A DNA stretch of 32,000 nt from an uncultured Chloroflexia bacterium (GCA_963718915.1 CAVRAI010000014.1:1-32000); one strand, 5' to 3'; numbered from the stretch's first letter, positions 337 through 32,000 are shown. A program made the numbers and translations. The notes: generated by a model not told the origin, from the letters alone.

Positions 337-1539
337 CTACATCTCTCGCGGCTGGCGTGGTTCGTGACGCCACATTCGTGGGGCATCCTCATCTCGACGA
401 CCCCGTCCTCGCAGTGGTCTTCCCGATCTCCCGGAGCGGCTGTCGGTTGCGAAGCCAAGGCGATCGACCGGGCTGGAGGCGCGCTGCAGCTCCCCGATCC
501 GCCCCGGAGTCATATTCAAGTACCCCTGGGTCGTGCGAATGTCGGCGTGGCCCAGTTTAAGCTGGACCGTCCGCAAGTCGGCGCCGGCGTCGAGGGTTTC
601 GAGTGCCGAGGTGTGGCGCAACAGGTGCAGGTGGAGATGCGGCACGCCCGCGGCACGCTCCAGGCGGTGCAGCCAGCTGCGCAGCCCATAATAGGTAAAG
701 CCTGTGCCATGGATCGTCTGGAAGAACGGCGCCAGCGCCGAAACATCGCTGTTATCCAGCCCCTCACGGAGGAGCGCGTAACGGCGCAGGGCGCGCATCG
801 TCTCACCGCCCACGGCGATCAGGCGCGGCTTACGCCCCTTACTGCGTCGCACGACAAGGATGCCTTCTTTGAGCGAGACATCGCCGATAGTCAGGGCGGC
901 AATTTCCCTTGCTCTCAGACCGCCGTCGATGAGGGTCAGCAGGAGCGCGCGCGAGCGCGCGCCGAAGACACTATCTCTGTCGTGCTCCGCCGCCCGCACC
1001 AACTTCCGTAAATCCCCAATCTTGACTGGCACCTTCGCCGTCTCTTCGCCCCGCGGCATTTTGAAGTAGCGCAGTGGCGACTCCTCGCAGTAGCGGTGCG
1101 GTGGCTTGGGCAGCCAATTAGCGAAGACCCGCAGGGTTCGCAGATAGGTGCGTAGCGAGGCGAGGGCAATCGGCGGGTTGCCTTCGGCGACGATGCCGCC
1201 CAGCGCCTTCGGCTGCGCACGCAGACACGCTGTCCAGGCACGAACGGTCTCGGTCGTGAAGTCGTTGAGATCCGGTGCGCGGTCAAGCGCCTCGCGCAGA
1301 TACGTGAGGTAGAGCGTGATCGGGCCGCGATAGGCGCGCTCAGTGGCGGCCGCCAGTGTCTGGGCCACCTCGTCAAGGAAATCCTCGATGAGTGGCTCGA
1401 GTGGGACGCGCGGGACTCGTGATCGCGGCGTTCGTGGAATGCGTGGAGCGCGATGAGGGCGCGCCGTTGCCTGTCCTACTGAACTGGGCAAGTCGGCCTC
1501 GCCTGTTGAGTTGGTGATAGAGAGCGATGCGTTGGCCAT
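337..1539 (-). CDS. tyrosine-type site-specific recombinase (phage-type integrase)
   Basis: 400-aa ORF. The C-terminal catalytic region has GLRAREIAAL (box I Arg), HLLRHTSA (H-x-x-R) and LGHADIRTTQGYLN (catalytic Tyr), as in the XerC/XerD/phage integrase family. The N-terminal part looks like a core-binding domain (ERAYRGPITLYLTYL). It lies about 400 bp from the 3' end of tRNA-Lys. Confidence 0.85.
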   Translation of the reverse strand: MANASLSITNSTGEADLPSSVGQATARPHRAPRIPRTPRSRVPRVPLEPLIEDFLDEVAQTLAAATERAYRGPITLYLTYLREALDRAPDLNDFTTETVRAWTACLRAQPKALGGIVAEGNPPIALASLRTYLRTLRVFANWLPKPPHRYCEESPLRYFKMPRGEETAKVPVKIGDLRKLVRAAEHDRDSVFGARSRALLLTLIDGGLRAREIAALTIGDVSLKEGILVVRRSKGRKPRLIAVGGETMRALRRYALLREGLDNSDVSALAPFFQTIHGTGFTYYGLRSWLHRLERAAGVPHLHLHLLRHTSALETLDAGADLRTVQLKLGHADIRTTQGYLNMTPGRIGELQRASSPVDRLGFATDSRSGRSGRPLRGRGRRDEDAPRMWRHEPRQPREM

Positions 1540-7382: not shown

Positions 7383-8651
7383 TCACACGCGATGTTTCAA
7401 GAATGGAACGAATGTCACCGTTCCCTGGACTGTCGAGCAGCCCGTCGCGCCGGGACCACCTGGGCAGCCCCAGTAGTTCTGTGTGGCGTCAACCGCGCCG
7501 CCCCCGGCGTTCTGGACGCCGATAGAGCCTTTGCCGAGCAGATTATTGTTGTGCAGTGACAGATTCATCGCGGTCGAGCCAATCCAGACATCGATAGCCT
7601 CATTCGTGACCGTGTTGAACTTGATCGTCATACCCGTGATGGGAGCCGCGTTGCCATTCGCGTCGCTGAAGATGATGATGCCGGTCGGGCCACTCGTCCC
7701 CGCATCGCCATCGGCGGCATTCCCACTCACAAAGTTTCCGATGATCCGATTCCCGTTCAGATCCTGCCCAAACGCATGGCTGTGGAGCGCGACGCCGGGC
7801 AGTCCGTTATTGGTCAACACATTGCCGAGGACAAGGTTATCGAAGGACTTCGTGCCTGGTGTCGGCGCGAAAATACCGACGCCCGCGCCACCGTTACCCG
7901 TCGACAGGTTGTAGGAGACCGTGTTGTTGTAGACGCCGTTGCCTGGCAGTGGCACACCATTGGCGTCGAAGCCAGAGGGGTGCGAAGGCAACGTGATGCC
8001 GCAGTCTATCTTGTTATCGCGGACAATGTTGCCAGTAATCAGGTTGTCATGCGTCGGACCGGTCTCGTCGGTGAGCAGGATACCGCCCACATTGTTCGCA
8101 ACCACATTGTGCGAGATCGTCGACCAGGCAACGCCAAGGAGATGAAGCGCTTCGCCGCAATCATCCTGATCGAAGGGCAGCGCGCCGGGACACGTGGCGT
8201 CTGGCTGCAGCCCGCGGTCATTTTGGCTCACCACATTCCAGCTCACCACCACCTGCTTCGTATTGCGAATCAGGATGCCCTCCAGCGTGGCATTCTTCAC
8301 CGTGAATCCGGTAATCACTGTCCCGCGCGCGCCAGAGCCATCCACAAGGAAGCCATGACTCTGCCCGGTCGCATCGACGACCGCTTTGCTGCCCGCGCCC
8401 TGAAGGGTCAGCGACTTCGTGATCGTCACCTGCTCGCTATAGGTTCCGGCCGCGACGTTGATGCGCGCCCCCGGCGGCGCGTTATCGACTGCCTCCTGAA
8501 TGGAGTGATAGCAGCCGTTGCCATGAGGATTGACGCACAACACCGTCTGACCATGAGCTGACGCGACGCCACCCCCCAGGGATGCGGCGCTGAGGATAGC
8601 CGCTAGGACACCGGCGAATGTCAGAGACCAGCGCGACAGGGATCTACGCAT
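7383..8651 (-). CDS. secreted right-handed parallel beta-helix repeat protein (NosD/pectate-lyase-like fold)
   Basis: Signal peptide MRRSLSRWSLTFAGVLAAILSAASLGGGVASA. It is followed by many repeats of about 22 aa of the type N-x-V-x-x-N/G (ISHNVVANNVGGILL, ITGNIVRDNKIDCGI, VLGNVLTNNGLPGVAL, IIGNFVSGNAADG). ATG 8651 is preceded by AAGGAG. The annotated ORF start at 8675 would contain that RBS. Confidence 0.8.
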   Translation of the reverse strand: MRRSLSRWSLTFAGVLAAILSAASLGGGVASAHGQTVLCVNPHGNGCYHSIQEAVDNAPPGARINVAAGTYSEQVTITKSLTLQGAGSKAVVDATGQSHGFLVDGSGARGTVITGFTVKNATLEGILIRNTKQVVVSWNVVSQNDRGLQPDATCPGALPFDQDDCGEALHLLGVAWSTISHNVVANNVGGILLTDETGPTHDNLITGNIVRDNKIDCGITLPSHPSGFDANGVPLPGNGVYNNTVSYNLSTGNGGAGVGIFAPTPGTKSFDNLVLGNVLTNNGLPGVALHSHAFGQDLNGNRIIGNFVSGNAADGDAGTSGPTGIIIFSDANGNAAPITGMTIKFNTVTNEAIDVWIGSTAMNLSLHNNNLLGKGSIGVQNAGGGAVDATQNYWGCPGGPGATGCSTVQGTVTFVPFLKHRV

Positions 8652-8923: not shown

Positions 8924-9355
8924 ATGACCGGGACGTTCCATCCTGCGGCAGCGGAACGCGCGGAGTTGCTGGCGGCGGCCCGCGAGGCTGCCACGCATGC
9001 CTGGGCGCCATATTCACACTTCCGCGTGGGCGCGGCGGTTGCGGTCAACACGGCGGAGGGGCGGCGCATTGTTTCCGGCGCCAATGTCGAAAACGCCTCG
9101 TACGGGCTGACGCTTTGCGCCGAACGGGCAGCGCTGGCGGCGGCCTGCCAGCTTGGCGCGGCGGGTGAGCCTCCGCAGATCATGGCGGTCGCGGTTGTCG
9201 GGCTGGATGCGCAGCCGGGTGAATGCATGCCGTGTGGCGCGTGTCGTCAGTGGCTTGCCGAGCTTGCGCCCGACGCCGACTATTATGTGGAAGGGGTCGA
9301 GGAAACGCTCCACCTGGATGACCTGCTGCCTCGCCGGTTCACACTCAACCGCTAG
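8924..9355 (+). CDS. cdd: cytidine deaminase
   Basis: Zinc motifs CAERAAL and PCGACRQWLAE are present, plus VGAAV...G...GANVENASYGLTLC. The size (about 143 aa) fits the homotetrameric class. ATG 8924 follows GGGAGAG. A GTG at 8885 is an alternative start. Confidence 0.9.
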   Translation: MTGTFHPAAAERAELLAAAREAATHAWAPYSHFRVGAAVAVNTAEGRRIVSGANVENASYGLTLCAERAALAAACQLGAAGEPPQIMAVAVVGLDAQPGECMPCGACRQWLAELAPDADYYVEGVEETLHLDDLLPRRFTLNR

Positions 9356-10756: not shown

Positions 10757-11281
10757 TTAGTCAGCGTTTAATGCTGTCTCTGTCTGCACCTCGATCACCC
10801 ATCGGCCAAAGAATCGGCGGCGACGCACCGACCGGATGCGGATATCATGCACATCCGGCAGCGTCGTGACGTAGCGCTGCATCAGCGTACCCACTGGCCG
10901 CGCCACCGCAAAGCCCGCCACCGAGCCAGCCGCCACCGTGGCGAAGCGCGTGCGCGGGCGGAGCGCTGTCAGCGCGAAGAGCGAGCCAACCATGACCACT
11001 GAAAGCCCGACGGCCAGATTCGTGCCACAGTTGGGATGGATCGCCAGTTCTGATTCCCCCCCCTGGAGTCGCCTCAGCGCCTCATCGCTGGCGCGGCGCA
11101 CCTCGCCCGGAGGGACATCGGCAAAGATGATGAACCCGCGCGCATTCGAGCGCGCGCTGGCATTGAGTTCGGGCAGCGCCTGCGAGAGCAGCGTGACTGT
11201 CGCGTGTTCCAGCGCATGATTCTGGCGGGTGCGCCGCCCAAACAGCATGTCTCCGGTATCCACCTGATGTCTCGCTTTCAT
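10757..11281 (-). CDS. hypothetical protein with HALEHAT / HPNCGTN motifs and hydrophobic segments (resembles what I recall as DUF6391)
   Basis: The ORF extends to 11392 but that part overlaps yggS. ATG 11281 lies 1 nt after the yggS TGA, suggesting translational coupling. Putative metal-ligand motifs are NHALEHATV and [11 protein letters not shown]. Hydrophobic stretches are [17 protein letters not shown] and [12 protein letters not shown]. Confidence 0.6.
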
Positions 11282-11282
11282 C

Positions 11283-12098
11283 TCAGCCTGTCCGCTCGTC
11301 CCGCGCTGTTGCGGGTGGCGCGCCGATAGGTGGGCGCGAGCCAAAGATCGCGCGCCCGATCCGTACCAGTGTCGCGCCCTCTTCGATGGCAACCTCGAAA
11401 TCGTCGGTCATGCCCATCGAGAGTTCCGACCAGCCGCCATCTGGTTCCATCGGAACCGCTGCCCGGAGCGTCTCGCGAAGCGCGCGCATCTGGCGAAAGA
11501 CTGGCCGCACCGCCTCCGGATCATCCACCAGCGGCGCGACGGTCATCAGTCCCTCCAAAGACAGGTTTGGCAGCGCGGCGATGGCTCGCGCCACGCCGAC
11601 GAGATCGTTTGGCGCGATGCCAGCTTTACTCGCCTCGCCCGCGATGTTGACCTCCAGCAGAATCGGCAGCGCACGCCCGGTCTGGTGAGCGCGTAGCGAC
11701 AGCGCCTCGGCCAATCGCACGCTATCCACACTCTGCACCCGTGCAAACAATTCTACCGCACGCGCGGCCTTGTTCGTCTGCAAATGGCCGATCAACTCCC
11801 AGCGGATGGTGGTTAGCCCGGCGGCGGCAACGGCGGCAATCTTCTCGCGCGCCTCCTGCACGCGATTCTCGCCGAAGAGGCTCAGGCCATGCGCGGCGGC
11901 GGCTATCACCGCCTGCGCTGGCAGCGTCTTTGAGACCGCGACGATGCTGACACTTTCAGGCGCGCGACCAGCACGCCCGGCGGCGGTGGCAACCCGCGCG
12001 CGAATGGCGGCGATGCGCTGCGCCAGCTGGTTATCATCCCGCGATGAAAGCGTCTGCTCGTCCCGTTGCTCCGATGAAACCACTCCAGTCGCCTCCAT
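11283..12098 (-). CDS. yggS: YggS-family pyridoxal-phosphate homeostasis protein
   Basis: VAVSKT (PLP Lys), [44 protein letters not shown]. 271 aa, with an N-terminal extension of about 35 aa. Confidence 0.9.
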
Positions 12099-14264: not shown

Positions 14265-14909
14265 CTACATGGTGCGCTCAGAGCGCTCCTGCGGCGGCTC
14301 GCCACGCACCATCCAGACACGGTGCGGCGCGTTCCTCAACACAAATTGGGCGGTGTCATCCAGACACACCTGCCCGGTGCGCCCGAAGCGGTACGGCAAG
14401 CCCAGGATGATGAGCGAGCACTCGTGGACATCGCTCTCATCCACAAAACTCTGACCTAACGACCGCGACTGGATAATCTCCGGCTCGACGGGGAAGTTCA
14501 GTTGTCCCGCCACCGCCACCGCAGCGTCCAGCGCGGAGTTCCCCTGGTCGCTTTCTTTGGGCATCTCGGCGTCTACTGGCAGGGTGCGTGGCACCTCGAT
14601 GCCAAAGACCGCGAAGACATGACTCTTCTTCATTTTCGCAATGGTGCAGGCCAGCGTGATTAACTCGCGGTCCTGCACTGAGCCAGTCACAACCACCAGC
14701 ACATTTTTCGGACATTGCGGATCCTGCTCATTGGGCAGGGGCATCATATCTGGCTTAGGCGTGCTCTCATTCGCGCCTGGATGATTCTCCATAAGGTGAA
14801 GCCCCTCAATAACCTTGGCAGCTTTTCTCTGGGGAACCAGCCGCTCTAAAAGCCCCACAGCCATATCCTCCTTGGGAATACCATACACAGTGGCATTCTG
14901 CAACAGCAT
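14265..14909 (-). CDS. universal stress protein (UspA) family protein with N-terminal extension
   Basis: The C-terminal 150 aa show the USP fold pattern (VLVVVTGS...ELI.LA, SLIILGL..R......CLDDTAQFVLRNAPHRVWMV). The start is uncertain: ATG 14909 follows GGTGGGAG, and TTG 14933 and internal ATGs are alternatives. Confidence 0.7.
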   Translation of the reverse strand: MLLQNATVYGIPKEDMAVGLLERLVPQRKAAKVIEGLHLMENHPGANESTPKPDMMPLPNEQDPQCPKNVLVVVTGSVQDRELITLACTIAKMKKSHVFAVFGIEVPRTLPVDAEMPKESDQGNSALDAAVAVAGQLNFPVEPEIIQSRSLGQSFVDESDVHECSLIILGLPYRFGRTGQVCLDDTAQFVLRNAPHRVWMVRGEPPQERSERTM

Positions 14910-15250
14910 TATTGCTCCCACCATCGGGCGCAATCATCATGCGATAACATGCGATACGTGCGATAGACGCACAAAGGGTACCAGGACGCACGCCATCAGC
15001 CATCAGTCTCGATCACCGCCACATGAACGTGGACATGGACGAACTCGACAGATTTCTCGCGCCTTTCAGACGCCTGCGTGATCCAGATACCCTCTTGGAC
15101 GAACCGGACAGTGCCAACTCGCCCGATAACCATTATTGTGCCGTAGTGACTTCGCTATTCATACGCCTCTTTTTGGGCGTTGTCAATAACCCATTCACCC
15201 CACTACACAGTATATACCAGCTTTATATTTTACCACAATGTTATGTTATC

Positions 15251-15280
15251 TTTCAAGGGCGACGTCGCTACGGGTATAAT
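15251..15280 (+). promoter_or_regulatory. candidate sigma-70-type promoter
   Basis: TTTCAA, an 18-nt spacer, then TATAAT, within an AT-rich 500-bp divergent intergenic region upstream of the 15430 ORF. Confidence 0.35.
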
Positions 15281-15429
15281 CCCTGATAGTGTGGGCGCGC
15301 CACGCTCGCGCCATCCGCATAACATGTTGCATCTAGAATACGCACAGGACATCATAAAAGTTATGGAACAAATCAACGCCGACCCGATGAATTCAGCCAT
15401 TGCGCCCTCTCAGGACCCGATAGCGGAGC

Positions 15430-15900
15430 ATGCACGAGTGGGCCAGTCCCGGTGTGAGCGTGCGCAAGCGCTGGCTGACGGGCATCGGCGTTCTCCTCGC
15501 CAGCGCGCTCTTCTTCTTCATCGCACTGAGCGAAGGCGTTACGATGCTGGTGAGCACGCTGATTGGCATCGTCTTCATCGGCGGCTTTATCGGCTATCTG
15601 CGGGTCGTCGCGCCCGCGCCGTTCACGATACGGCTGGATGACGAGGGTATCAGTCGCAGCGACCGCGGCGGTGAGCCGGTGACGATTCTCTGGGCTAATG
15701 TCGCCAAGATCAGGGAAGAGGTTTTCCCCAGCGGCAAACCCGTCAGTATCGCCGTCTTCAAGCGGGTTGGCGAGCGCGGACTCCACCGCTCCTGGGTCGT
15801 CTATGGCGACGACATCCCCCACTTCGCCGAATTCATCGCCGCGCTCCACGCTGGCTTGCCAGAAAGTACCCCCTGGCTACGCGAGACCGTCCACGAGTAA
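15430..15900 (+). CDS. hypothetical membrane-anchored protein (2 TM helices plus a soluble C-terminal domain)
   Basis: High third-position GC in this frame. TM helices are WLTGIGVLLASALFFFIAL and LVSTLIGIVFIGGFIGYL. No family recognised and the start is uncertain. Confidence 0.5.
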   Translation: MHEWASPGVSVRKRWLTGIGVLLASALFFFIALSEGVTMLVSTLIGIVFIGGFIGYLRVVAPAPFTIRLDDEGISRSDRGGEPVTILWANVAKIREEVFPSGKPVSIAVFKRVGERGLHRSWVVYGDDIPHFAEFIAALHAGLPESTPWLRETVHE

Positions 15901-27596: not shown

Positions 27597-27618
27597 ATGA
27601 ACCCTGGCGCGGAGGGCG

Positions 27619-27761
27619 CTGGCGGCTAAAGCCGCGCCTAAGGGCGTTCCGCCACGAAGGCCGCCTACGCGGCCTACAGAGCGCGCGTTGCTCATTGGAG
27701 CCTGCGCAGGCAGGCTTTGTCGCCTTCAGAGAAGGCGCTTAGGCGCGGCTTTAGCCGCCAG
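27619..27761. repeat. 143-bp composite palindromic element (24-bp perfect terminal inverted repeats)
   Basis: CTGGCGGCTAAAGCCGCGCCTAAG (27619-27642) is the exact reverse complement of 27738-27761. Each arm also self-folds (GGCGGC taaa GCCGC). The interior contains the 12-nt palindrome GCCTGCGCAGGC (27700-27711). It occupies most of the 203-bp spacer between the two ABC genes. Confidence 0.85.
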
Positions 27762-27799
27762 CCAGGTTTATACATAAACACCACACGGAGAATCACCAC

Positions 27800-29620
27800 A
27801 TGGGCTTCATCATGGACGGATTGGACGCCGACGCCTACGACCGCACGTATTCAGATCGCAAGCTGATCGCGCGCATCGTGCGCTACTTCGGGCCACGCGC
27901 GCGGATGATGCTGCTGGTGACGGCGATGATCGTGCTGGGATCGCTGGCCGATACCGTCCTGCCGCTGTTGCTGGCGCATGGCGTGGACGTCGTGACGACC
28001 TCGCACACCGCGGCGACGATTGCCGGACTGGTGGCGGCGATCCTGATCGCGGGCATCCTCTCGTGGTGCTTCAGCTTCGTGCGCCAGTGGTATACCGCGA
28101 AAGCCGTCGGCGAGGTCGTGCTGCAACTGCGGCTGGACGCCTTCTCCGCCGTCCTGGCGCGCGACATGTCGTTCTACGACGAGAACCCATCGGGCAAGAT
28201 TGTCAGCCGCGTCACCTCCGATACCGAGGACTTCTCGACCGTGGTGACGCTGGTGCTGAACCTCCTGAGCCAGGCGTTGCTGGTCATCCTGATCGCTATC
28301 GTGCTCTTCATCATCAACCCCGTGCTGGCGCTACTGGCGCTGGGCATCGCGCCGTTCATCATCGCGGTGGCGCTCGCCTTCCGCCGCATCGCGCGCACCA
28401 CCGTCCGCAACTCGCAGCGGGCGCGGGCGCGAGTCAACAACACCATCCAGGAGACGATCAGCGGCATCGCCATCGCCAAGAACTTCCGCCAGGAGCAGAC
28501 GGTCTATAACGAGTTTGGCGCGGTCAACCGGCAGGCGTATCAGGTGAACTGGCGGACGGGCTTCGTCTTCAACGGCGTCTTCCCCATCCTCAACACCGTC
28601 GCGGGCCTGGGCACCGTCGTCATCATCTGGTTCGGCGGGCTGAACGTGCTGCATGGCGCTGTCTCGGCGGGCACCTGGTATCTCTTCGTGCAGAGCATCG
28701 CCATTTTCTGGTTCCCGCTGACCAGCATCGCCTCGTTCTGGAGCCAGTTCCAGCAGGGATTATCCGCTAGCGAGCGGGTCTTCGCGCTGATCGACGCCGA
28801 GCCGCGTGTGGAGCAGACCGACGCGCAGCCAGTGGCGTCGCTCGAAGGGCGGATCGAGTTCCGCGACTTCTACTTCGGCTACAACGCCGAGCATACTGTC
28901 CTGCCGGGGCTGAACCTGACGATCCCCGCCGGGCAGACGGTCGCGGTGGTGGGGCATACCGGCGCGGGCAAATCGAGCCTGGCGCGGCTGGTGGCGCGGT
29001 TCTACGAGTTCCAGGGCGGCGAGCTGCTGATCGACGGGCGCGACATCCGCACGTTCGATCTGCGCGACTACCGGCGCCACCTGGGCATTGTGCCGCAGAC
29101 GCCCTTCCTCTTCGACGGCACGGTGGCCGAGAATATCCGCTATGCCCGCCCAGATGCCACGGAGGACGAGGTGGCGGCGGTGGCGCGGCAGATTGGCGGC
29201 GGCGACTGGCTCGACGGCCTCTCTCATGGGCTAGAGACGCCGGTGGGCGAGATGGGGCGTGGCCTCTCGATGGGCCAGCGGCAACTGGTGGCTTTGGCGC
29301 GGGTGCTGCTGCAGAATCCCGCCATCCTGGTGCTGGACGAGGCGACGGCGAGCGTCGATCCGCTGACCGAGGCGCAGATTCAAGAGGGGCTGGAGACGGT
29401 GCTGGAGCATCGGACGGCGATGGTGATCGCGCACCGGCTCTCGACGATCCGCGACGCCGACCGCATCCTGGTGCTGGATCGCGGGCGCATCGTGGAGGAG
29501 GGCACGCACGACGAGCTACTGCTGCGCGGAGGCTCCTATGCGACGCTCTACAACACCTATTTCCGCCATCAAAGCGCCGACTATGTGCCCGGCAGCGGCT
29601 ACGTGGCGGTGGCGGATTGA
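27800..29620 (+). CDS. ABC exporter, fused permease/ATPase, subunit with canonical catalytic site and degenerate signature
   Basis: Walker A GHTGAGKSS, signature LSMGQRQL (degenerate LSGGQ), Walker B ILVLDEATSAVD (catalytic Glu present), H-loop IAHRLS. 606 aa. Confidence 0.92.
   Translation: MGFIMDGLDADAYDRTYSDRKLIARIVRYFGPRARMMLLVTAMIVLGSLADTVLPLLLAHGVDVVTTSHTAATIAGLVAAILIAGILSWCFSFVRQWYTAKAVGEVVLQLRLDAFSAVLARDMSFYDENPSGKIVSRVTSDTEDFSTVVTLVLNLLSQALLVILIAIVLFIINPVLALLALGIAPFIIAVALAFRRIARTTVRNSQRARARVNNTIQETISGIAIAKNFRQEQTVYNEFGAVNRQAYQVNWRTGFVFNGVFPILNTVAGLGTVVIIWFGGLNVLHGAVSAGTWYLFVQSIAIFWFPLTSIASFWSQFQQGLSASERVFALIDAEPRVEQTDAQPVASLEGRIEFRDFYFGYNAEHTVLPGLNLTIPAGQTVAVVGHTGAGKSSLARLVARFYEFQGGELLIDGRDIRTFDLRDYRRHLGIVPQTPFLFDGTVAENIRYARPDATEDEVAAVARQIGGGDWLDGLSHGLETPVGEMGRGLSMGQRQLVALARVLLQNPAILVLDEATASVDPLTEAQIQEGLETVLEHRTAMVIAHRLSTIRDADRILVLDRGRIVEEGTHDELLLRGGSYATLYNTYFRHQSADYVPGSGYVAVAD
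29577..29620 (+). repeat. direct repeat copy A (native 3' end of the ABC gene)
   Basis: 29577-29613 matches 31221-31257 at 34 of 37 positions (ccgactatgtGcCcggcagcggctaCgtggcggtggc). It encodes ...DYVPGSGYVAVAD*. Confidence 0.8.
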
Positions 29621-29665
29621 GGGAGACTGTTGAATCGCATGGCGGTGGTGATCCTGAGTGAGCAG

Positions 29666-29688
29666 GCCGCAGGCTGAAGCCCTGCGGC
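29666..29688. repeat. GC-rich hairpin (REP-like) downstream of the ABC gene
   Basis: GCCGCAGG ctgaagc CCTGCGGC, a perfect 8-bp stem. The GGCTGAAGCC core resembles the GGCTTCAGCC and GGCTAAAGCC cores at 17633 and 27625. Confidence 0.5.
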
Positions 29689-29715
29689 TAATCCCATCAG
29701 TTCAGTATCCTCTCG

Positions 29716-29753
29716 CCCGGCGGTGGGTATGTGGCAGTGGCCGAGGGCGAGCG
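29716..29753 (+). repeat. direct repeat copy C (left border of the low-GC islet)
   Basis: 29716-29753 matches 31232-31269 at 33 of 38 positions. The core tatgtggcRgtggccgagggcgagcg matches at 25 of 26. Read in frame it would encode PGGGYVAVAEGERAG*. Confidence 0.8.
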
Positions 29754-31220
29754 CGCGGGGTGATTTGTAGGATTCGCCTTTGTGGCTGAGTGAGAATGAT
29801 TATCGGGTACGGTCTTAATGACTGGTTTGGGTATTTATTGCATCGAACAGGTCTGCCAAAGGCTTTTCATATTCGCTGTGTTCAAACACAATGCGATGGA
29901 GCGCGCTCAAAATTATTGGAACCTTACAAGGTCGCAACAAAATCGGGATGATTGGTATGTGCTGGTCATGAGCATACCAAGTCTCCATGTCGACCCATTC
30001 TGATTCCACCGCATCTGGCGAAAGAATGGTAATGACCGCATCACTCTCATCAATTGCGCTTTGTATGTTCCGTATCCACCTATCTCCTCCTTTCAACTTG
30101 CTTTTGTCAATCCAAGGTACTAATCCACGCGTGCTAAGAGACTGCTCAAGACGATGCGCAAATACCGCGTCCTTATGAGAGTGGCTGATGAAGACCTTCT
30201 TCGATGCTGAATCTACCTCAGCGACGACGTCACGCACTGACATGCCGCCTTTGCTTGGTTGTTTCCAGCCTTGCCTCCATTGAATTATACCCTGGAATAC
30301 TGAGCCGACAATTATGAACAGCAGACTAATCAGAGCAAGAAGTAATATTGAAGGGACGCTCACCAACAGAACCGCTATCCCTTCCGCCCCGATGACAAAA
30401 CCTTTCCATCCTAAAAAGACACCAATAAACACGAGTGATGATATGCTAAAGAGTGCACTTGCTGTGACAACTGCGGGTTGCATGCTAAAGAACTGTTGAA
30501 ATAATCCGCCCAAAGTGAGAAAAATCACAGCAACGACATCGCTGAGAAACATGAAAATCGCAAGGTAGAGTCTGATACGACGTTCTAGAGGTGAAAGATC
30601 GGGTTCAATTCGAACTACATCAGGGAGTCCAGGCACATGTTCTTCAATTAGCATGCCTGATAGAGTCGCGATCGTGACAAAGAAGACACCAGTAATAACC
30701 GGGAGATACGGATAGAGAACTCTAAGCCATGATGGTGGTGCTCCGCCACCAAAGAGAATCGGCGCCCGTGTTGAGACTAAGATGTAATTGGAGCCAACAC
30801 TTACTAATAGCAGAAACAGATATATAAAGCGTCTGACCCACGCGCTGGTGATTTCGCTTACTGTTGGTCTTTGTACTGTCTTCCTAATCTCATCAAAGTC
30901 TGGTAGGCTTCCAGTCTCTTTTTGCCTTTGCGCTTCAGCAATGACCTTTAGATAAATTCTCCTTGCTTGTCTTTCTTCCTCGCCATCACGAGACCAAAAA
31001 CTGTTTATAGCGTGCTGGAGGCGAGTTGCGCCACGAATGACAATATAGCCTGTGGACACAAAAAAGTTCGCACGTGGAGAAACGTTTTCTACCATTCTTT
31101 GATTAGAACCCCCACGCATGCTAAGCAATCGTCAAGCGATCGTCAGCAGTATAGCACAGGCTTGCAGCCATCTCTCTTTGCATTCAAATTGGGCGGCCTC
31201 TATCTCCTCCGCCTAAGACA
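29754..31220. mobile_element. compositionally foreign single-gene islet (no recombinase on board)
   Basis: Hand counts on four 60-nt lines inside it (29881, 30301, 30361, 30781) give 43, 42, 50 and 38% G+C, against 68% for line 29341 in the adjacent ABC gene. It is bounded by direct repeat copies C and B. Confidence 0.55.
29815..31119 (-). CDS. multi-pass membrane protein with C-terminal TIR domain
   Basis: The C-terminal 128 aa (29818-30201) read KKVFISHSHKDAVFAHRLEQSLSTRGLVPWIDKSKLKGGDRWIRNIQSAIDESDAVITILSPDAVESEWVDME. This matches the bacterial TIR pattern F-I-S-[HY]-x-x-x-D, G..W.D, AI..S...I.ILS and S.WV..E. It is preceded by about 5 strongly hydrophobic helices (e.g. FIYLFLLLVSVGSNYILV, LPVITGVFFVTIATLSGMLI, LYLAIFMFLSDVVAVIFLTLGGL, GIAVLLVSVPSILLLALISLLFIIVGSVF) and an N-terminal region of about 90 aa of unknown type. 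Start is ATG 31119 (alternatives TTG 31128 and ATG 31095). A possible extended -10, TGCTATACT, lies at 31148-31156 on the minus strand. Confidence 0.8.
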   Translation of the reverse strand: MRGGSNQRMVENVSPRANFFVSTGYIVIRGATRLQHAINSFWSRDGEEERQARRIYLKVIAEAQRQKETGSLPDFDEIRKTVQRPTVSEITSAWVRRFIYLFLLLVSVGSNYILVSTRAPILFGGGAPPSWLRVLYPYLPVITGVFFVTIATLSGMLIEEHVPGLPDVVRIEPDLSPLERRIRLYLAIFMFLSDVVAVIFLTLGGLFQQFFSMQPAVVTASALFSISSLVFIGVFLGWKGFVIGAEGIAVLLVSVPSILLLALISLLFIIVGSVFQGIIQWRQGWKQPSKGGMSVRDVVAEVDSASKKVFISHSHKDAVFAHRLEQSLSTRGLVPWIDKSKLKGGDRWIRNIQSAIDESDAVITILSPDAVESEWVDMETWYAHDQHIPIIPILLRPCKVPIILSALHRIVFEHSEYEKPLADLFDAINTQTSH

Positions 31221-31269
31221 CCGACTATGTCCTCGGCAGCGGCTATGTGGCGGTGGCCGAGGGCGAGCG
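31221..31269 (+). repeat. direct repeat copy B (right border of the islet; hybrid of A and C)
   Basis: ccgactatgtcctcggcagcggctatgtggcggtggccgagggcgagcg. The left part matches copy A and the right part matches copy C. In the ABC reading frame it would encode DYVLGSGYVAVAEGERAA... Confidence 0.8.
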
Positions 31270-31310
31270 AGCCGCAGCAATAGACTCGCTCTTGTGCTTG
31301 TCTTCTCCGT

Positions 31311-32000
31311 TTATCCTGCGCGCTCCGCCAGTGCGGTAACTTCCTCCTGCTCCTCAGGCGCAGGCGCGGGCGCAACCGCCTCTTTCGCTGCCCTCGCGGC
31401 CCGGCGTAGCAGCAGGGTCGGCGGCACACGATAGACCTCGCGCGCCAGGCGCAGGCGCTCCAGCGTCCAGATGAGGTAGCCGGAGAGGTCGAACTGCCAC
31501 CAGCGCAGGCCATGGAACGCCGAACGCGGGAAGGCGTGGTGATTGTTGTGCCAGCCCTCGCCGAACGCCAGCAGGCCGACGATCCACTCGTTGCGGCTGC
31601 GGTCCGTCGTCTCGAATGCGCGCTTGCCGAAGGTGTGGCAGACGGAGTTCACGCTCCAGGTGACGTGATGCGTCAGGAACATGCGCACCAGCCCACCCCA
31701 GAGCAGCCCGCTCAACGCCAGCGGCCACCCGCCAAGGAGCCAGCCGACGGCGAACGGGATCGCCAGCGACAGGACCGCCCAGAGCAGGAACGTCTTGCTG
31801 ACGAAGGTCACAATGCGGTCGCTCACCAGATGGCGGGTGTACACCATAGGGTCGGCGTCGCCATCGCGGAAGATCCAGCCGAGGTGCGCGTGGAAGAAGC
31901 CCTCGACGGGGCTGTGCGGGTCGCCCTCACGGTCGGCGCGCGCGTGGTGTTTGGTGTGTGTCGCGGCCCAATCGAGGGCTGGACCCTCAAAGGCCATCGA
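31311..32000 (-). CDS. acyl-CoA (delta-9-type) fatty acid desaturase, N-terminus beyond the window edge
   Basis: Histidine boxes THTKHHARAD and WHNNHHAFP are present, along with TM helices. The reading frame stays open to the window end, so the ATG at 31997 is probably internal. Confidence 0.85.
   Translation of the reverse strand, partial: SMAFEGPALDWAATHTKHHARADREGDPHSPVEGFFHAHLGWIFRDGDADPMVYTRHLVSDRIVTFVSKTFLLWAVLSLAIPFAVGWLLGGWPLALSGLLWGGLVRMFLTHHVTWSVNSVCHTFGKRAFETTDRSRNEWIVGLLAFGEGWHNNHHAFPRSAFHGLRWWQFDLSGYLIWTLERLRLAREVYRVPPTLLLRRAARAAKEAVAPAPAPEEQEEVTALAERAG

Follow-up and report, generated by a model that had tools for sequence, protein, structure and literature searches.

The 3' end of an ATP-binding cassette (ABC) exporter gene is present in three partial copies in a 32,000-nt stretch of DNA from an uncultured Chloroflexia bacterium (GCA_963718915.1, CAVRAI010000014.1:1-32000; hereafter the window, whose positions serve as coordinates throughout), and a gene for a TIR-domain protein lies between the second and the third of these copies. 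Comparison with an unoccupied site in a related genome shows that the ancestral order was ABC gene, 62-nt spacer and convergent desaturase gene, and that an insertion of ~1.6 kb, from ~29614 to ~31220, has come between the two genes. In other Chloroflexota the same gene end is repeatedly duplicated around differing defence cargoes. We consider it probable that a cassette carrying its own copy of the gene end entered by a Campbell-type insertion, whichever enzyme was at work. More tentatively, we propose that the window preserves the scar of two successive single-crossover insertions of recombinase-less cassettes resembling cis-mobilizable elements (CIMEs), carried out by a site-specific recombinase acting in trans. 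The organism is a member of the Ktedonobacterales (Chloroflexota).

The target gene encodes a protein of 606 amino acids in which permease and ATPase are fused, the second subunit of a heterodimeric pair. Its present tail, ...GYVAVAD*, is 5-12 residues shorter than those of close orthologues, which are 90-95% identical in the protein database and end in …GYVAVAEGERAG, i.e. ...AVAEGERAG, or in variants of it. These close relatives were taken from the protein database and a metagenome scan and not from the scan of GTDB species-representative genomes, in which the best match to the ABC protein reached 72% identity and none lay above. The tails AVAEGE* of P0012 and P0013, which had been considered as insertion junctions, proved to be native tails with a stop created by point mutation. 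A repeat search yielded one three-copy family in register (29577-29616, 29705-29744 and 31221-31260), whose block follows the pattern CCGACTAYGT…GGCCGAGGGCGAGCG. By blastn the rightmost copy (B) agrees with the leftmost (A) at 34/37 positions (91.9%) and with the middle one (C) at 25/26, while a gapped alignment of C with B gave 34/39. The 26-mer TATGTGGCRGTGGCCGAGGGCGAGCG occurs twice in the window, at 29728-29753 and 31244-31269, and had zero matches at up to three mismatches across 100 dinucleotide-preserving shuffles. A reading of the locus made beforehand from the sequence alone (the sequence-only reading) had described three copies of ~40 nt at these positions, with 34 of 37 matches between B and A and 25 of 26 in a 26-nt core, and both searches reproduced it; it had also taken copy A for the real end of the ABC gene, and the 606-residue gene with its Pfam domains does end there.

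The unoccupied site was reached through the closest desaturase orthologue (P0128, 84% identity) and lies in L173, a contig of a Ktedonobacterales metagenome-assembled genome (MAG; GCA_035279945.1, DATEGU010000310.1). There a single ABC gene end (…VSVAEGERAG*) is followed by the 62-nt spacer and then by the convergent desaturase gene; in the orientation of the window it reads …GTGGCCGAGGGCGAGCGCGCGGGGTAAGGGCAGGCAGGCGAGCGAGCCGCAGCAATGGACTCGCTC…, and then comes the desaturase stop codon. Window positions 31262-31334 are identical to the intergenic region and the desaturase 3' end of L173 at 60/73 positions. The 27 nt that L173 holds between two GGCGAGCG octamer repeats are absent from the window at 31269/31270, and the native stop codon has thereby been lost; apart from this gap, copy B and the right flank are collinear with L173 without a break. 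Because of this collinearity with the empty site, B and its right flank are identified as the displaced native end, and the desaturase is the native convergent neighbour of the ABC gene. The same comparison disposed of a candidate recombination breakpoint, the right edge (…GAGGGCGAGCG|) that B shares with the corresponding copy B' of locus L081, since L173 shows at this point the 27-nt deletion between the GGCGAGCG repeats. An empty site with one repeat copy, in which the ABC gene end stands directly before the desaturase gene, had been predicted in advance, and L173 provides it; relatives with three repeats but no insert, named in advance as the case adverse to an insertion, were not seen.

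Copy C, located inside the insert, is a full canonical replacement end that has a stop codon of its own. It extends to 29763 and reads PGGGYVAVAEGERAG*, with an in-frame TGA at 29761-29763; it is identical to the L173 empty site at 43/46 positions, and its final 27 nt equal the end of the L083 orthologue (27/27). It is because the orthologue tails match that C can be called the canonical gene end, stop codon included. The replacement 3' end envisaged by the sequence-only reading thus finds its counterpart in the tail and stop of C, together with the collinearity of B and its flank with the empty site. A further extension of C into the native intergenic region was discarded as not significant, its score being equalled by 564/2000 shuffles. 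Copy A lies at the junction and forms the present terminus of the ABC gene (…AVAD*): it could be aligned to the L173 empty site up to 29610, and the GGATTGA directly after it contributes the new stop codon at 29618-29620. Leftwards, B could begin at ~31200 (blastn of 29557-29616 versus 31200-31260, 82% over 61 nt), although the extra 20 nt are weak taken alone.

The A/B and the C/B direct repeats both hold the 3' end of the target gene, as in an element bounded by attL and attR, and L173 has the single copy of an unoccupied site. The copies differ in allele: the GCGGAT of A is the form found in P0248 with its native AVAD tail, GCCGAG stands in B and C, and GGCGGTGGG is present in C alone. Just beyond the block A and B diverge again (GGAT versus CGAG). 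Such differences would fit blocks that came from different hosts.

We propose the following course of events. The target would be the final 50-75 nt of the exporter gene, and each incoming circular DNA would bring its own copy of the ABC gene 3' end, so that a reciprocal crossover within the gene-end copy would produce the order gene, block, cargo, block, native remainder. Three copies point to two insertion events, i.e. to accretion. The TIR cassette would have arrived with C as its replacement end and would now be bracketed by C and B. Another cassette, kin to an insert that carries a gene for a 384-residue protein in relatives (see below), would have entered the gene-proximal copy and then have been deleted nearly completely, leaving the 100-nt spacer and the shortened ABC tail of copy A. 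The order of the two insertions could be either, with the TIR cassette first or second. B would afterwards have lost its 27 nt through slippage between the GGCGAGCG repeats. The enzyme is the weakest step of the model: a recombinase would have been supplied in trans, as with CIMEs, with elements of the staphylococcal cassette chromosome (SCC) type that are devoid of ccr, and with the Dehalococcoides ssrA islands that have no integration module.

Table 1. Features of the ABC gene end and the inserted DNA, from left to right in the window
Feature	Position	Strand	Evidence or remark
ABC exporter gene, insertion target	27800..29620	+	Pfam ABC_membrane 3.7e-43, ABC_tran 1.4e-30
Copy A, left copy, contiguous with the ABC gene body	29577..29613	+	34/37 versus B
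Spacer, probable remnant of the first, gene-proximal insert	29621..29715	+	Homology to L082 9109-9196
Copy C, middle copy, within inserted DNA, detached from the gene body	29716..29763	+	26-nt core and alignments
Left arm of the TIR cassette, GC dropping across the arm	29764..29814		GC profile
TIR cargo gene, 437 aa	29815..31128	-	Pfam TIR_2 2.4e-24; PADLOC TIR models
Right arm, upstream of the TIR gene	31129..31220		31200-31220 may be decayed copy B
Copy B, displaced native gene end (…DYVLGSGYVAVAEGER)	31221..31269	+	Collinear with the L173 empty site
ABC-desaturase intergenic remainder, native	31270..31310		Within the block 31262-31334 aligning to L173
Acyl-CoA (delta-9-type) desaturase gene	31311..32000, runs past the window end	-	Pfam FA_desaturase 8.1e-18

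The segment from C to B is strongly foreign by composition. Measured in intervals of 200 nt, GC falls from 0.61-0.70 to 0.42-0.50 between ~29800 and ~31200; GC and GC at third codon positions (GC3) are 0.458 and 0.429 in the TIR gene, against 0.66 and 0.895 in the ABC gene and 0.68 and 0.86 in the desaturase gene. The TIR gene is the sole real open reading frame (ORF) of the islet, which has no recombinase, transposase, integration or transfer gene and no terminal inverted repeats, the best inverted pairs being internal and weak. Both the compositional contrast and the absence of integrase, transposase and terminal inverted repeat had been remarked on beforehand, and the GC and GC3 values on the one hand and the ORF and repeat searches on the other agree with them.

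The 437-residue product has an N-terminal region, ~5 predicted transmembrane helices (residues ~100-275) and a C-terminal TIR domain (310-430). With 86.6 bits for TIR_2, against a Pfam gathering cut-off of 28, it is a TIR-domain protein, and the domain matches ThsB models at 1e-6 to 2e-8, as well as other bacterial TIR models. Comparison with 5.8 billion proteins revealed the gene in no further genome. For the membrane module (residues 18-270) the same collection holds one relative, P0002, of 706 residues and 44% identity, whose C-terminal half is unrelated and unannotated; with a different C-terminus on P0002, the effector domain has apparently been swapped, as is typical for defence proteins. 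The islet is not a Thoeris system, because the partner gene is missing: no ThsA or other second gene is present in it. The membrane-TIR protein is a putative defence effector. The left arm of the cassette (52 nt, 29764-29815), compared with the first 120 nt after the L081 stop at the same offset, showed a weak similarity that 36/3000 shuffles equalled.

The spacer between A and C has a relative of its own. Positions 29633-29720 match L082 9109-9196 (78% over 90 nt, E 2e-11), a stretch located just 3' of a gene for a 384-residue membrane protein that directly follows the ABC gene in that locus. Genes of 331-393 codons are found at the equivalent position in L083, L084-L089 and L091; those of L083 and L084 begin with the same residues as the 384-residue protein, and a Pfam scan of the ones in L082, L083 and L091 matched no family in any of the three. 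Past the spacer homologue, at 9252-9304, the ABC gene end of L082 recurs as a decayed relic, ~70% identical with indels, which overlaps the 3' end of the PMSR gene and whose score is equalled by 3/3000 shuffles and 1/285 control segments. The arrangement suggests that the gene for the 384-residue protein, common here in relatives, is itself an old insert. The window spacer would be the leftover of a gene-proximal insert of this type, mostly deleted, and the perfect 8-bp hairpin within it (29666-29673 / 29681-29688) would belong to the unit. As an alternative, the sequence-only reading had offered a single event that left a decayed remnant at 29621-29715, and the 78% match over 90 nt near the gene for the 384-residue protein supports it. 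The ABC protein P0259 ends in AVAE* and is exactly as long as that of the window, a hint that its genome may share the proximal event. The predicted fold of 29614-29770 has an unremarkable stability (z -0.63), and Rfam returned nothing above chance on 29400-31500. A resemblance of 29627-29653 to ABC coding positions 29402-29428 (27 nt, 78%) was taken as chance similarity. A mini-ORF of 12 codons was also observed in two sequences only, the spacer (29636-29674; MAVVILSEQAAG) and L082 (9108-9146; MAKVIAAERAAG), and in both it stops at the TGA of the hairpin loop.

Recurrence of the arrangement was established at ~170 loci, each of which was searched for further copies of its ABC gene end, taken as the final 300 nt of the gene and the 150 nt that follow. 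The ABC gene end is duplicated around other cargoes, of 0.76-4 kb, in five more Chloroflexota loci. A block of ~60 nt accompanies a 2.3-kb type II restriction-modification system in L081 (PADLOC REase_II 2e-54, MTase_II 2e-112), one of 92 nt (99% identical) a 1.0-kb cargo with no clear gene in L008, and one of ~82 nt a PD-T4-4_A gene (2.7e-52) with a 165-residue partner in L132. In L122 the block has 105 nt (96% identical), and the 0.76-kb cargo holds a PIN_3 gene and, ahead of it, a 111-residue ORF, which we read together as a toxin-antitoxin pair; the distal copy is followed by the native terminator of the lineage, which is the Campbell topology. L060, from an Anaerolineae MAG, has three copies (7630-7886, 10793-10860 and 11697-11987), in the order gene end, SpbK-like TIR gene, partial copy, PIN gene and a 290-nt diverged-allele copy of the gene end with terminator, and its diverged gene-end relic is also found in L132. 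Under a uniform threshold a downstream direct copy was detected at 5/109 ABC gene ends and at 2/497 control gene ends taken from the same loci (Fisher p 0.003); when L081 is counted the proportion becomes 6/109 (p 6e-4). Two hits were excluded from these counts: that of L108 is a heptamer-repeat terminator and not a gene-end copy, and that of L126 (78-7854) is a whole two-gene ABC operon present twice in tandem, at 70-79% nucleotide identity. A tandem duplication of the ABC gene end without cargo was seen in L071 (7756-7835 / 7878-7957; 80 nt, 81% identical, 122-nt period), and tandem repeats lie just downstream of the ABC gene in several other loci.

Defence-type genes abound in the region after the ABC gene, and not only in the six duplicated-end cases but far more widely. 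When 312 ORFs with a minimum of 190 residues, within 3.5 kb downstream of the ABC gene at ~125 loci, were compared with Pfam, AAA_21 ATPases were the commonest family (9/312), with TIR_2, Mrr_cat, Uma2, Eco57I and AAA_15 also present; in L151 and L083, too, the ABC gene has a TIR_2 gene downstream of it, and L115 has a weaker TIR-like match. The proteins P0251, P0252 and P0256 are >90% identical in their body, but after YNTYFR|SQ they continue with the long VRFTD-type tail of a 73%-identical clade. These tail swaps indicate that foreign replacement ends do get installed on the ABC gene.

The edges of the blocks cluster, which speaks for a dedicated recombinase. The strict left edges of window B and of L008 coincide to within 1 nt, at GCCGACTA, and those of L081 and of the L082 relic to within ~14 nt; several blocks end at the stop codon, and the PGSGYVAVA coding stretch is common to all Ktedonobacterales-type blocks. 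The involvement of a site-specific recombinase in trans has nevertheless a number of results against it. Recombinase genes are found in 0/6 cargoes, those of the window and of the five loci. Block lengths are 27, 37-76, ~60, 92, 105, ~110 and ~290 nt, extending on both sides of the putative core, and the right arms of the window, L081 and L008 have no significant mutual similarity, so that the cassette arms are not conserved. A phmmer search with the window integrase in all ORFs of 172 loci gave one match, in L114, 7 kb from the ABC gene. Among the 312 downstream ORFs no integrase or resolvase family recurs, IstB_IS21 alone being met twice, although single occurrences could escape. A cognate recombinase-bearing element of the same specificity was not found at the ~125 loci, within flanks of 6-8 kb, in which the distal repeat of longer elements is invisible; viral contigs searched with the coding block, and plasmids and phages searched with the islet, yielded no carrier. 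With no recombinase at ~125 loci and a varying block length, "site-specific" is inseparable from a homology-driven single crossover.

The window does contain an integrase, 28 kb away, which the sequence-only reading had regarded as unlinked to the islet. It is a tyrosine integrase (337-1539, minus strand; Phage_integrase 1.2e-23) positioned 400 nt from the 3' end of tRNA-Lys(CTT) (1943-2018), the layout of a tRNA-targeting island, which bears out that opinion; the pair looks like the edge of another, tRNA-integrated island extending leftwards beyond the window.

The topology proposed here could also be reached without a dedicated recombinase, if circles of cargo plus gene end, popped from a donor via their flanking repeats, entered by RecA-mediated single crossover in the conserved coding stretch, the cassettes spreading among relatives by homology alone. 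We regard this course as possible, if on the unlikely side. It would account for a block length and for edges on both sides that vary across events, for ~125 orthologous loci without recombinase and for the mosaic alleles in the copies; the tail swaps resolve in YNTYFR, the most conserved DNA stretch, and in L060 and L132 the duplicated unit takes in the terminator and a diverged coding part of ~175-240 nt, resembling an entire foreign gene-end allele. However, it requires a primary event joining the low-GC foreign gene to a gene-end copy, as well as cell-to-cell transfer of non-replicating circles; at 27 nt and 81% identity, the A/C block lacks the length and the similarity that efficient RecA crossover demands, and the clustering of block edges would not be predicted.

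A single step would suffice if a stalled fork or a staggered break had arisen close to the convergent gene ends and a linear foreign fragment had been caught there and sealed by end-joining or microhomology repair, fill-in of the overhangs duplicating 37-70 nt (A and B), and C plus the spacer coming from the donor. Long, variable duplications without recombinase or inverted repeats would be natural for such a duplicative illegitimate insertion, a possible microhomology GCC.GG exists at the spacer/C junction, and the cargo-free duplication of L071 marks the region as duplication-prone. Yet A and B differ at 3/37 positions and again past the block, while the TIR gene is intact and in no other genome, which is too much for a fresh target duplication; the blocks of L122 and L008 are clean, in register and without filler DNA; and the model leaves unexplained that the same few codons were hit independently in several lineages and that C has a perfect canonical end and stop. 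We judge it rather improbable. Local duplication or triplication of the gene end, with foreign DNA arriving later between the copies by chance, would be in keeping with the 80 nt repeated at a 122-nt period in L071 and with the tandem repeats downstream in other loci, but it is highly improbable given that the empty site has a single copy, that no relative has three copies and no insert, that the copies differ in allele and that six independent cargoes must each have hit exactly between existing copies. An assembly artefact, by which a low-GC contig of another organism was mis-joined at short shared repeats, might be suspected from the sharp shift in composition and from a source that is probably a metagenome-derived assembly. 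Against it, the repeats are imperfect, no two having the same sequence, both flanks are collinear with the independent assembly L173, five other independent assemblies show a like architecture, and an ABC-type copy, C, lies within the supposed foreign piece; the chance of such an artefact is minimal.

Two further observations concern the rest of the window. The gap between the two ABC genes is filled by a 32-nt inverted repeat (27618-27649 / 27731-27762; 94% complementary, 81 nt between the arms), both arms of which have counterparts in L084-L089, L172, L004 and L008, and which might act as a regulatory or attenuator element of the second-subunit gene. A second GC dip occurs at 14500-15500 (0.53-0.56 versus ~0.64), around a universal-stress-protein gene (14265-14933) and the stretch that follows it.

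The locus provides a cleanly resolved case, empty site included, of a single foreign defence gene entering a Ktedonobacterales chromosome, and shows one conserved ABC exporter gene end reused for insertions across the Chloroflexota, on whose mobile elements there has been little work. The gene end could serve to mark sites for the mining of new defence genes, the cargoes including a membrane-TIR fusion with almost no relatives. Should insertion have proceeded without a recombinase, it would represent a simple route by which defence genes pass between relatives without mobile-element machinery. A wider view, speculative and in our opinion doubtful, is that the ABC exporter 3' end acts as a phylum-wide Chloroflexota capture platform for small defence cassettes with no element-encoded recombinase. 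In that event the cassettes would move by homology alone or by a host housekeeping recombinase, and tandem stacking and repeated C-terminal tail swaps would make of the gene end a homology-addressed analogue of an integron.

Comparison with known systems separates the islet from several classes of element. It does not behave as a transposon or insertion sequence, having no transposase ORF, no terminal inverted repeats and a duplication of at least 37 nt. Nor are its repeats those of integron cassettes, since they are ABC coding sequence and not imperfect palindromes (fold z -0.63), and the position of the window integrase beside tRNA-Lys lends no support to an integron platform. The TIR protein resembles single-gene TIR effectors (ThsB-like, SpbK-like, CBASS/Pycsar) in its C-terminal TIR_2 domain and its defence-type islet, but differs from the TIR effector systems in that there is no ThsA, cyclase or partner and in that the domain is fused to a five-helix membrane module. 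Defence-island hotspots lie between conserved core genes in E. coli and Pseudomonas pan-genomes. As in these, one conserved locus accommodates differing small anti-phage systems (TIR, restriction-modification, PD-T4-4, PIN toxin-antitoxin); in hotspots that exchange their content by flanking homology the flank is not duplicated, whereas every cargo described here has a copy of the gene end on either side.

The closest parallels are islands accreted at gene ends. At rlmH/orfX the repeats of SCC measure 15-18 nt, and the arrays of SCC and ccr-less pseudo-SCC elements are likewise tandem islands at a gene 3' end, with sibling islands that carry CcrAB. In Dehalococcoides, the islands at ssrA form tandem arrays, and 15/31 of them, without an integration module, have been proposed to be CIMEs (PMC3146451). 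They belong to the same phylum and, like the islet described here, lie in tandem downstream of a single-copy gene with direct repeats of its 3' end; their repeats, unlike those of the window, are a fixed 20 nt with a mapped crossover, and sibling islands carry the serine recombinase DsiB. At the window locus neither a recombinase nor a fixed core is demonstrable, in contrast to both Dehalococcoides ssrA and SCC. CIME accretion at a gene 3' end is a described process, for example for the ICESt1/ICESt3-related elements at fda in Streptococcus thermophilus (PMC5704250). The islet shares with CIMEs the absence of integration and transfer genes and direct repeats made of the target gene 3' end; as in CIME accretion, three successive repeats would delimit two tandem elements, one of them decayed, and the target keeps a functional end. 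It differs in that no related integrase-bearing element was found for the window site, in that the repeat blocks are longer and variable, in the tiny size of the window-type cargoes (0.1-4 kb) and in its target, an ABC exporter gene in Chloroflexota. By analogy, the window feature would most resemble a CIME-type islet in tandem accretion at a conserved gene 3' end. Insertion at gene ends with duplication of the end is already known; what is new here is the target gene, in a little-studied phylum.

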